Source: Heptranchias perlo
Lineage: Eukaryota
Length of the DNA: 64,000 nucleotides
Direction: 5' to 3'
Assembly: GCF_035084215.1 (NCBI RefSeq)
Contig: NC_090352.1
Coordinates: 6,386,001-6,450,000 of the forward strand
Both the position numbers and the translations under genes were made by a program. The notes beneath the pieces are model-generated. The model was not told where the DNA came from, did no database searches, and saw only the letters and a program-made list of their open reading frames with translations. Positions 14,201 through 16,042 of this stretch are shown here, piece after piece. The stretch's first letter is position 1, and every line of letters starts with the position of its first letter.

Positions 14201-16042
14201 CACCTCTGATAAAAAGTAATTTGAGTTTAGAAGTCTATATCATAAAAGGTTTGAGCTAACTGACAGTCATTATTATGATGTAGTCATTATTATGATAAAA
14301 GTGATTATGATCCACTCATCTGATGGACCTCAAGTAAATGCTTGGAGACTTGAGGTGTGTGTTATTTGGGTGTCACAATATCCTCCATTTTAGGATGTGA
14401 AATCAGGTCACTTACAATGGACCACAATGCAAATATGTCCAGGTGAAAGGCCCCAAGAAAACATTCCAGAAAACCGACTATGGTTAACAATCACAGGCTT
14501 AAGACCAGAGGTGACCAACCCTCAAGCTGGCCCCAGTTAAGTGTGGTCAGATCTCAGCATAGCCACACTTTTTTCCTCTATGAAGCGCCTTGGGATGTTT
14601 TTATTTACAGTAGAGGCACTATATAAATGCAAGTTGTTGTTGATGGCGGTGCAGAAAAATGGCAACATCTTATCGCAAAGAGGTTAATCTCCTAGCGGCT
14701 GCACAGTCTCGTTCCCACTTGTAAGAGGGTTGTGGGGAAGGGCCAAACTAAACAGAGAAAAAAAAAGAGAGACTGGTTTAAACTAAATCAATATAAACTC
14801 TGGCGAGAAAATAGAGATGGGGCGTGTTTTTAGAACATTATCCTTTCCTCTCCAGGCTTGGGGGGGAAAGATGTCAAAACCGAAGGAATCTGAACAATTT
14901 CAAGCCACTTCCCCTGAACCAAACTGCAAAGCACAAAACTCTTGAAGCTAATTGACACTTCAGAAATGAAAACTGAAGGGGGAAAAAAGATATATTTTTG
15001 GACACTCCTGTTCTTAACATCAACTCTGAACCTTGTCTTCAAAAAATCTGCCCTTCACTGTGCAACCCTGAAGAGTGCTAAAGGTCACAGAGGCTGGGAG
15101 AGGCTCATTCTCTGCATTTAAGAAATAGTCAGACATTCTGCATTTCACCTTGTCTCCTATAACCTCCTGTCCTAAGCTTTACAGGTAAAATCTGACATTC
15201 CACGTATATATATTTTCCTTATGCGGAGCGGTAGCCCAGAGACCCCGGACTGGCCTTATTTTAGTGCATCAGTACTTAGGCATTGTAGCAGTTGCATTAT
15301 TGTAGTATTAATAAATTCCTTTGCACATTCTTAATTTCATACATTGTTCATATTTCACTACTTGGAAAGGGCTTTTTTGTGTCTTTTTTTCTCTTGCATT
15401 TTGTGACTCTAATGATGCACTTATGTTGCCCCGCTTTTCCCTTTTTCCTCACACCTTACCTACTAATGGAGGAAATGCTACCTGATTGGTAAGTGTATGT
15501 TAACCAAACGGGGGTACAAAAAAAAACATTAATAATCTGGGTCGCTGATGACAGATGAGCAATTCTCTGCAGGAAAAAGCACAAAAAGAAAACAGAGTAT
15601 TATTCAGAGGGTTTTGTTTGAGTGATAATTAATACATTTGTGGATTTTTTTCAATTTTTGCCTTCCATTTCTGTGCTGTTCAGTCAAGTTGTCTATCTTC
15701 ACCTTGTTTTTTTTTAAAAACCAGGAATTGTAAGAAAATTTGTCCTTTCCTCAAAATACAGCAATCTGTTGAGCTCACTTTTTTTTAATTTATTTATTCT
15801 TCCATTCTGTTCCTTCTTAAACTTCGGTTGACTGTTTAATTTTTTTTTCCCATTCCAGGTTTTTTATTTTGAATTAATTTTTGGTTTGCATGCAAAATCT
15901 TGCATGAGCTGCACTGTAGAGGACTGTGTTAGATAAACTATTGACATAGGCTGTGTCTTAGGGATGTGGCAAGAATTGGAAGATGGTACTGTTTTTTTTG
16001 GTCCGGAGTCTCTTTAAGGTTAACCTTTCTCTCCTGCTGCAG

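Follow-up and report, generated by a model that had tools for sequence, protein, structure and literature searches.

Does SRRM3 carry, in the intron that precedes its eMIC exons, a microexon through which SRRM3 and SRRM4 could restrain their own output? Inclusion of microexons depends on SRRM3/4 dose, and their programme has been linked to autism, to photoreceptors and islets, and to neuroendocrine tumours. A sequence-only reading of this locus had proposed a 17-nt poison microexon by which SRRM3/4 could switch off srrm3, and that proposal is followed up here in the window, namely the whole 64,000-nt stretch of Heptranchias perlo NC_090352.1 (6,386,001-6,450,000, + strand) that was analysed; coordinates are positions within it.

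The gene in the window is identified by sequence as SRRM3 from its C-terminal SRRM_C/eMIC domain, an upstream cwf21 domain and a microexon that matches a mouse Srrm3 exon. The five coding exons of Table 1 form an open reading to the stop that ends in SRRM_C (Pfam PF15230, match at 31016-31168, E=1.8e-16), and the cwf21 match lies 216 kb upstream, tied to the eMIC exons by contig and strand and not exon by exon. Intron 3955-16042 is a phase 0 intron, and the skipping form, 3954 to 16043, stays open. A second N-terminal cwf21 match is present on a small contig (G000:C1357:95351-95422) and possibly belongs to SRRM2 or to an unplaced haplotype. Downstream of SRRM3, a long, AG-free tandem satellite occupies 45200-48850, with YSPPDIL-type repeat open frames that are probably non-coding. 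LINE-like fragments with reverse-transcriptase-like frames lie at 9775-11122, 28732-29716, 33128-35021 and 63239-64000, several of them being 93-97% identical to copies in the region of contig C28 described below and therefore recent.

Table 1. Features of the SRRM3 locus in the window (positions within the 64,000-nt window; X numbers denote assemblies of related species).
Feature	Position	Strand	Remark
Upstream coding exon of SRRM3	3706..3954	+	ends in phase 0; end spliced to 16043 in X1, X2, X4 and X7 contigs
Second paralogue-conserved element	12434..12539	+	UGC 12506; donor GTAGGT 12531
Core conserved with SRRM4-paralogue intron	15362..15505	+	83% identical to G000:C28:15664165-15664297(-)
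27-nt block identical in both paralogues	15405..15431	+	predicted branch point A 15412; UGC 15416 and 15427
Polypyrimidine tract	15432..15458	+	85% pyrimidine
GAG acceptor, the sole AG available	15469..15471	+	use suggested by contig break in X14
17-nt frameshifting microexon	15472..15488	+	TGA formed across junction with 16043
Consensus 5' splice site GTAAGT	15489..15494	+	spliced to 16043: joints in X6 and X3, 13-letter loose end in X14
Two TGCATG	15887..15906	+	in 554-nt downstream intron; paralogue has one at a similar distance from the donor (415 vs 413 nt)
Downstream coding exon, phase 0	16043..16389	+	
Next coding exon	25117..25371	+	
Exon with most of SRRM_C/eMIC domain	31030..31167	+	PF15230, E=1.8e-16; part of open chain
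Final coding exon, with eMIC end and stop codon	43448..43655	+	

The signals that the sequence-only reading had pointed out are largely where it placed them. The AG-free zone of about 100 nt is there (100 nt between the AGs at 15368-69 and 15470-71), as are the GAG, the 17-nt exon and the GTAAGT donor, together with TGCATG at 15887 and 15901, which are two of the nine copies of this presumably RBFOX-type motif in the intron. The branch-like CTCTAAT is present as well, at 15407-13 and not at 15406, which sets the predicted branch A 59 nt from the AG. The several UGC motifs amount to three intronic ones (15395, 15416, 15427), of which two lie past the branch point, 56 and 45 nt before the exon and ahead of the pyrimidine tract; the last 40 nt before the AG contain none. 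The architecture of an SRRM3/4-dependent microexon is present, with a strong donor, a long AG-free zone, a distant branch point and UGC between branch point and AG, but the UGCs are farther from the AG than usual; in SRRM3/4 targets, according to passages of PMC10551640 and of the Bonnal preprint, UGC lies close to the AG, unlike in the window. A second branch-like stretch, CTACTAAT at 15460-67, is too near the AG and is not conserved in the paralogue.

Composition by itself says little, as the + strand of the window has 14 AG-free runs of at least 98 nt and such a run alone is not rare. An AG-free run combined with a 3-27-nt exon and GTRAGT has a single occurrence in the window, and the combination also arises in 5 of 100 block-wise shuffles, from which the satellite (45001-49000) was excluded. 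The composition evidence for the microexon is only modest and the case rests on conservation. Other identities of the element were considered: an intronic C/D snoRNA or structured RNA was rejected (no Rfam match over the element; fold z of -0.05 and 0.09; the D-box-like CTGA missing from the paralogue and from mouse), and a repeat origin is unlikely given two genomic matches only in a DNA search that skips very common words.

A search of the 3.25-Gb genome with 15300-15620 returned one other match, on contig C28, with 83% identity over 144 nt, and a 25-nt core has exactly two genome sites at up to 2 mismatches, the control matching none. The C28 gene carries eMIC exons and is taken as SRRM4 from residues that we assume to distinguish SRRM4 from SRRM3, in agreement with the match of its exon to a mouse 16-nt exon (13/16 letters identical) in ENSMUST00000076124, presumably Srrm4. 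The C28 copy sits in a phase-0 intron at the same position and with the same layout (14.2 kb + 569 nt vs 11.5 kb + 554 nt in SRRM3). Its alignment to the core scores 159, against 25 +/- 2 and a maximum of 33 in 200 shuffles, and the core is the best of 80 intron tiles against the paralogue, the next best lying in LINE-like repeats. Over the 27-nt block that holds the branch point and both UGCs the two copies do not differ at all, and they share the donor. The SRRM4 exon would be 16 nt long from an AAG or 13 nt from a GAG, and both forms shift the frame, with a stop 57 nt into the next exon. The frameshift is thus conserved while length and letters differ (17 nt in the window, 16 or 13 nt for the SRRM4 copy and, for the two mouse exons, 20 and 16 nt), every version of the exon in window, paralogue and mouse shifting the frame upstream of the eMIC exons, and the few encoded residues are not conserved between the SRRM3 and SRRM4 copies. 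Conserved signals and a conserved frameshift, with drifting length and coding letters, are as expected of a regulatory exon. The splice sites are kept in the SRRM4 paralogue, in related species and in mouse, so the conservation of the AG/GT, on which the sequence-only reading had staked its proposal, was found. The element is real and old, and its presence in SRRM4 as well makes an origin before the SRRM3/SRRM4 duplication probable. Patchy identity with the paralogue also extends about 200 nt into the downstream intron (15489-15700), which suggests further shared regulatory sites.

Splicing was compared in seven (of 22) contig assemblies, guessed to be RNA, which come from seven organisms and seven studies, all of species other than Heptranchias perlo; contigs drop rare forms and cannot give levels or starts, and depths were not used as levels. 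In three of the seven, from three organisms and studies, the donor at 15489 is spliced to 16043, as GT..AG joints in X6 and X3 and as a 13-letter loose end in X14, so that the proposed splicing of the exon in RNA is borne out on the donor side. The other four (X1, X2, X4, X7) have the skip junction 3954-16043 without donor use. Use of a second AG, 2 nt deeper in the next exon (16045), would rescue the frame and leave it open; this was rejected, as all three donor-using contigs join 16043. Compared with the window, X6 has 49 differences over 331 letters of the coding exon and 0 over the 29 letters of 15459-15487, the element being the better conserved of the two. No donor use was seen for the paralogue in its unspliced contigs of X4, X6 and X14. 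Among the joints listed, the upstream exon, which lies outside the stretches compared, is joined to 15472 in none of the seven assemblies. However, X14 has a second contig whose first letter is exactly 15472 and which shares a 30-letter overlap with the first contig; in a 31-mer graph this hints at a second path entering at the GAG, although a branch on the other side would look identical.

All three spliced contigs run on into the upstream intron, for 1,005 nt in X3, 130 nt past the GAG in X14 and 13 nt plus an adjoining contig in X6, and long upstream-intron contigs occur in X6 (4,786 nt) and X7 (2,405 nt). Retention of the upstream intron may thus be a second outcome; the sequence-only reading had included neither this form nor the paralogous copy. 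One could go further and regard the element in this lineage as a decoy or detention switch, whose donor splices while the GAG rarely does, so that transcripts would keep their upstream intron and be detained, perhaps as a reservoir, and would be no NMD substrate. The contigs just described speak for this, as does the loss of an upstream AG: a TG at 15467-68 occupies the place where the mouse exon implies, and the SRRM4 copy shows or implies, an AG, which is absent in Heptranchias perlo and in two related organisms (0 differences over the place). Nevertheless, an intermediate in which the short intron is spliced first, together with NMD loss of the finished product, would give the same picture, the contigs lose rare forms and give no levels, the X14 break suggests use of the GAG, and the mouse cassette form has 63 junction reads in PMC7821500. 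That the element is mainly a detention switch seems rather unlikely. The TG is part of a TACTAAT at 15460-15467 that is absent from the paralogue. We take this motif to be branch-point-like or QKI-type.

As contigs cannot show starts, and as they reach at least 1 kb upstream without a joint, the donor might also belong to an internal first exon, or to an exon far longer than a microexon. Conservation is, however, centred on branch point, pyrimidine tract and AG, the mouse orthologues are internal cassette exons, and the translated downstream chain has no in-frame Met before the eMIC, which makes this highly improbable.

The same intron holds a second element shared with the SRRM4 intron (score 49, reached by 0 of 300 shuffles). 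Its acceptor is CAA in Heptranchias perlo and CAG in X6 and X7, where CAG would give an 11-nt frameshifting exon; the CAA may reflect loss of the exon in this species or an assembly error. The intron stretch 12110-12800 is still alignable in the diverged X6 and X7. Another candidate 11-nt exon lies at 12269-79, with an 84-nt AG-free zone, an upstream UGC, a downstream TGCATG and a weak donor; as a paralogue-conserved exon it was rejected, its likeness to the paralogue stretch being at noise level (score 27).

In mouse, the corresponding Srrm3 exon is known from table rows, and not as a described loop, in the parts of the literature searched. It is a 20-nt annotated exon (chr5:135867126-146, phyloP 5.5, 63 reads) in file 2 of PMC7821500 (MicroExonator), and 16 of its 20 letters are identical by eye to window 15469-15488. 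As MmuEX6021616 (chr5:135867127-135867146, mm10) it shares the long upstream and short downstream intron and the 3n+2 length, but it begins 3 nt earlier, from the upstream AG, whereas the window exon has the GAG only; judged by sequence, the 17-nt boundary is lineage-specific. Table S2 of Torres-Mendez 2022 (PMC8797185) classes it as eMIC-sensitive, i.e. with PSI falling by 15 or more when Srrm3/4 are knocked down, or by 10 in Srrm4 knockout brain. This class is weaker than 'dependent' and stems partly from a knockdown that targets Srrm3 itself, and may therefore be confounded. For the SRRM4 side, the mouse 16-nt exon (chr5_-_116454672_116454688; phyloP 5.0, 130 reads, 3n+1) falls in the 'Excluded' cluster, without differential inclusion, in PMC7821500, and has no row in the eMIC table of PMC8797185 nor in 12 of the 13 files of the NMD study PMC11188260. 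The gene ids gave no match in 12 of the 18 Ciampi supplement files.

The premature stop at the junction would precede three junctions and lie about 740 nt of exon before the last one, well beyond the 50-55 nt threshold for poison exons; inclusion would read E-M-L-P-D-stop with the TGA across the 16043 junction and the eMIC exons removed, exactly as had been claimed. Consistent with this, file 7 of Zhuravskaya 2024 (PMC11188260) lists a 20-nt Srrm3 cassette exon as 'NMD stimulating' in neurons, with PSI rising under cycloheximide from 0.57 to 0.81 at day 12 and from 0.33 to 0.64 at day 24, and the Srrm3 gene level rising by 0.53 and 0.68 log2. This exon is probably MmuEX6021616, the mm10 and GRCm39 entries being paired by gene, strand and length without liftover. 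A description of the exon in the main text was not found in the passages of PMC8797185 or PMC11188260, Srrm3 having 0 occurrences in those of the latter. The PSI of 0.33-0.57 without NMD block is high in mouse neurons, and the upstream cwf21 match on the same contig and strand means that a truncated protein would keep that domain, so that the included form might instead escape NMD and yield an eMIC-less SRRM3 with a role of its own. Since PSI and gene level both rise with cycloheximide, and since the few encoded residues are not conserved between the copies, we consider this very unlikely.

Taken together, the exon is very likely a functional unproductive exon, and feedback by SRRM3/4 through it is probable. 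A real poison microexon could instead be driven mainly by RBFOX through the downstream TGCATG, by PTBP, by a QKI-type ACTAAY or by core U1/U2 levels, with indirect sensitivity to Srrm3/4 and no self-loop. The distance of the UGCs from the AG, the TGCATG position kept in both paralogues, the 'sensitive' class of the mouse exon and the absence of observed compensation in zebrafish (PMC9303857) would fit such a control. However, the two UGCs sit in the sole 27-nt block identical in both paralogues, and the Bonnal preprint passages describe just this combination, a strong donor and a branch point far from the AG, for SRRM3/4 targets; control by other factors without a self-loop seems quite unlikely.

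The best explanation, in our opinion, is that the conserved frameshifting SRRM3 microexon likely serves as a feedback brake that diverts pre-mRNA from eMIC forms. In related species its strong donor at 15489 joins the next exon at 16043. The eMIC proteins would help the distant branch point, the UGCs and the pyrimidine tract to be recognised, as the sensitivity listed in mouse tables suggests. Where the weak GAG acceptor completes splicing, the stop three junctions before the end would lead to NMD; where it stalls, the 11.5-kb upstream intron would stay, with a first in-frame stop at 4141. Both the NMD form and the retained intron would be unproductive and lower eMIC output, and the same device in SRRM4 could buffer total eMIC dose. 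More tentatively, it is possible that a single sensor microexon, older than the duplication and common to SRRM3 and SRRM4, fixes how much eMIC a neuron has in total and with it the inclusion of low- and high-sensitivity microexons, and that here the loss of the upstream AG made a half-splicing trap that detains the 11.5-kb intron instead of, or beside, NMD.

Expression data run partly against such a brake. Among the rows listed, SRRM4 overexpression raised SRRM3 mRNA rather than lowering it (0.85 to 1.83 in DU145; 0.05 to 1.44 in xenografts; PMC7935315), and srrm3 mutant zebrafish eyes showed no compensatory srrm4 rise (PMC9303857). The SRRM3 rise is at low levels, and transcriptional effects are possible. 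A brake can coexist with contrary expression data of this kind, for example beside REST-mediated transcriptional activation. A large net shut-off of SRRM3 is unlikely; of the idea that SRRM3/4 switch off srrm3, the link to SRRM3/4 is supported by a mouse exon listed as eMIC-sensitive and probably NMD-stimulating, while 'switch off' is too strong and buffering likelier.

The element has several relatives among known systems. It resembles decoy exons that promote intron retention (SF3B1, OGT, ARGLU1) in combining a conserved cryptic exon with retained-intron RNA, but it has a strong, used donor and a weak acceptor, and decoys are mostly the reverse. With autoregulatory poison exons (SR proteins, the ARGLU1 ultraconserved element, RBFOX, and PTBP1/PTBP2 cross-regulation), as far as the source passages describe them, it shares a highly conserved intronic element, a frameshift or stop, a host gene for a splicing regulator and a place upstream of the active domain; unlike those, it is of microexon size, resembles in its build the exons that the regulator itself targets, and has a homologous copy in the paralogue, with protein-level feedback being putative. 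The proximal poison exon of Drosophila Srrm234, in the passages of PMC8797185, likewise acts after transcription to control eMIC output, in a gene of this family, but it lies at the 3' end and is skipped under Elav/Fne to turn the eMIC on, and is not eMIC-driven feedback. No statement of SRRM3/4 autoregulation through such an exon was found in the full-text literature searched, which does not establish absence from print, nor in the passages seen of PMC13281805, PMC8797185, PMC12626420, PMC13542418, PMC10551640, PMC7821500, PMC11188260, PMC7935315, PMC4387716, PMC9303857 and three preprints; the SRRM3 exon is catalogued in mouse, and the loop is, within these sources, apparently undescribed.

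A splicing-factor poison exon is a familiar class of mechanism, and both mouse exons already stand in catalogues. With an exon of 16-20 nt in each gene, control of SRRM3/4 dose could be tested directly, through a small deletion or with a splice-switching oligonucleotide. If the proposed brake is true, the exon would be a handle to raise SRRM3/4 where the microexon programme is weak.
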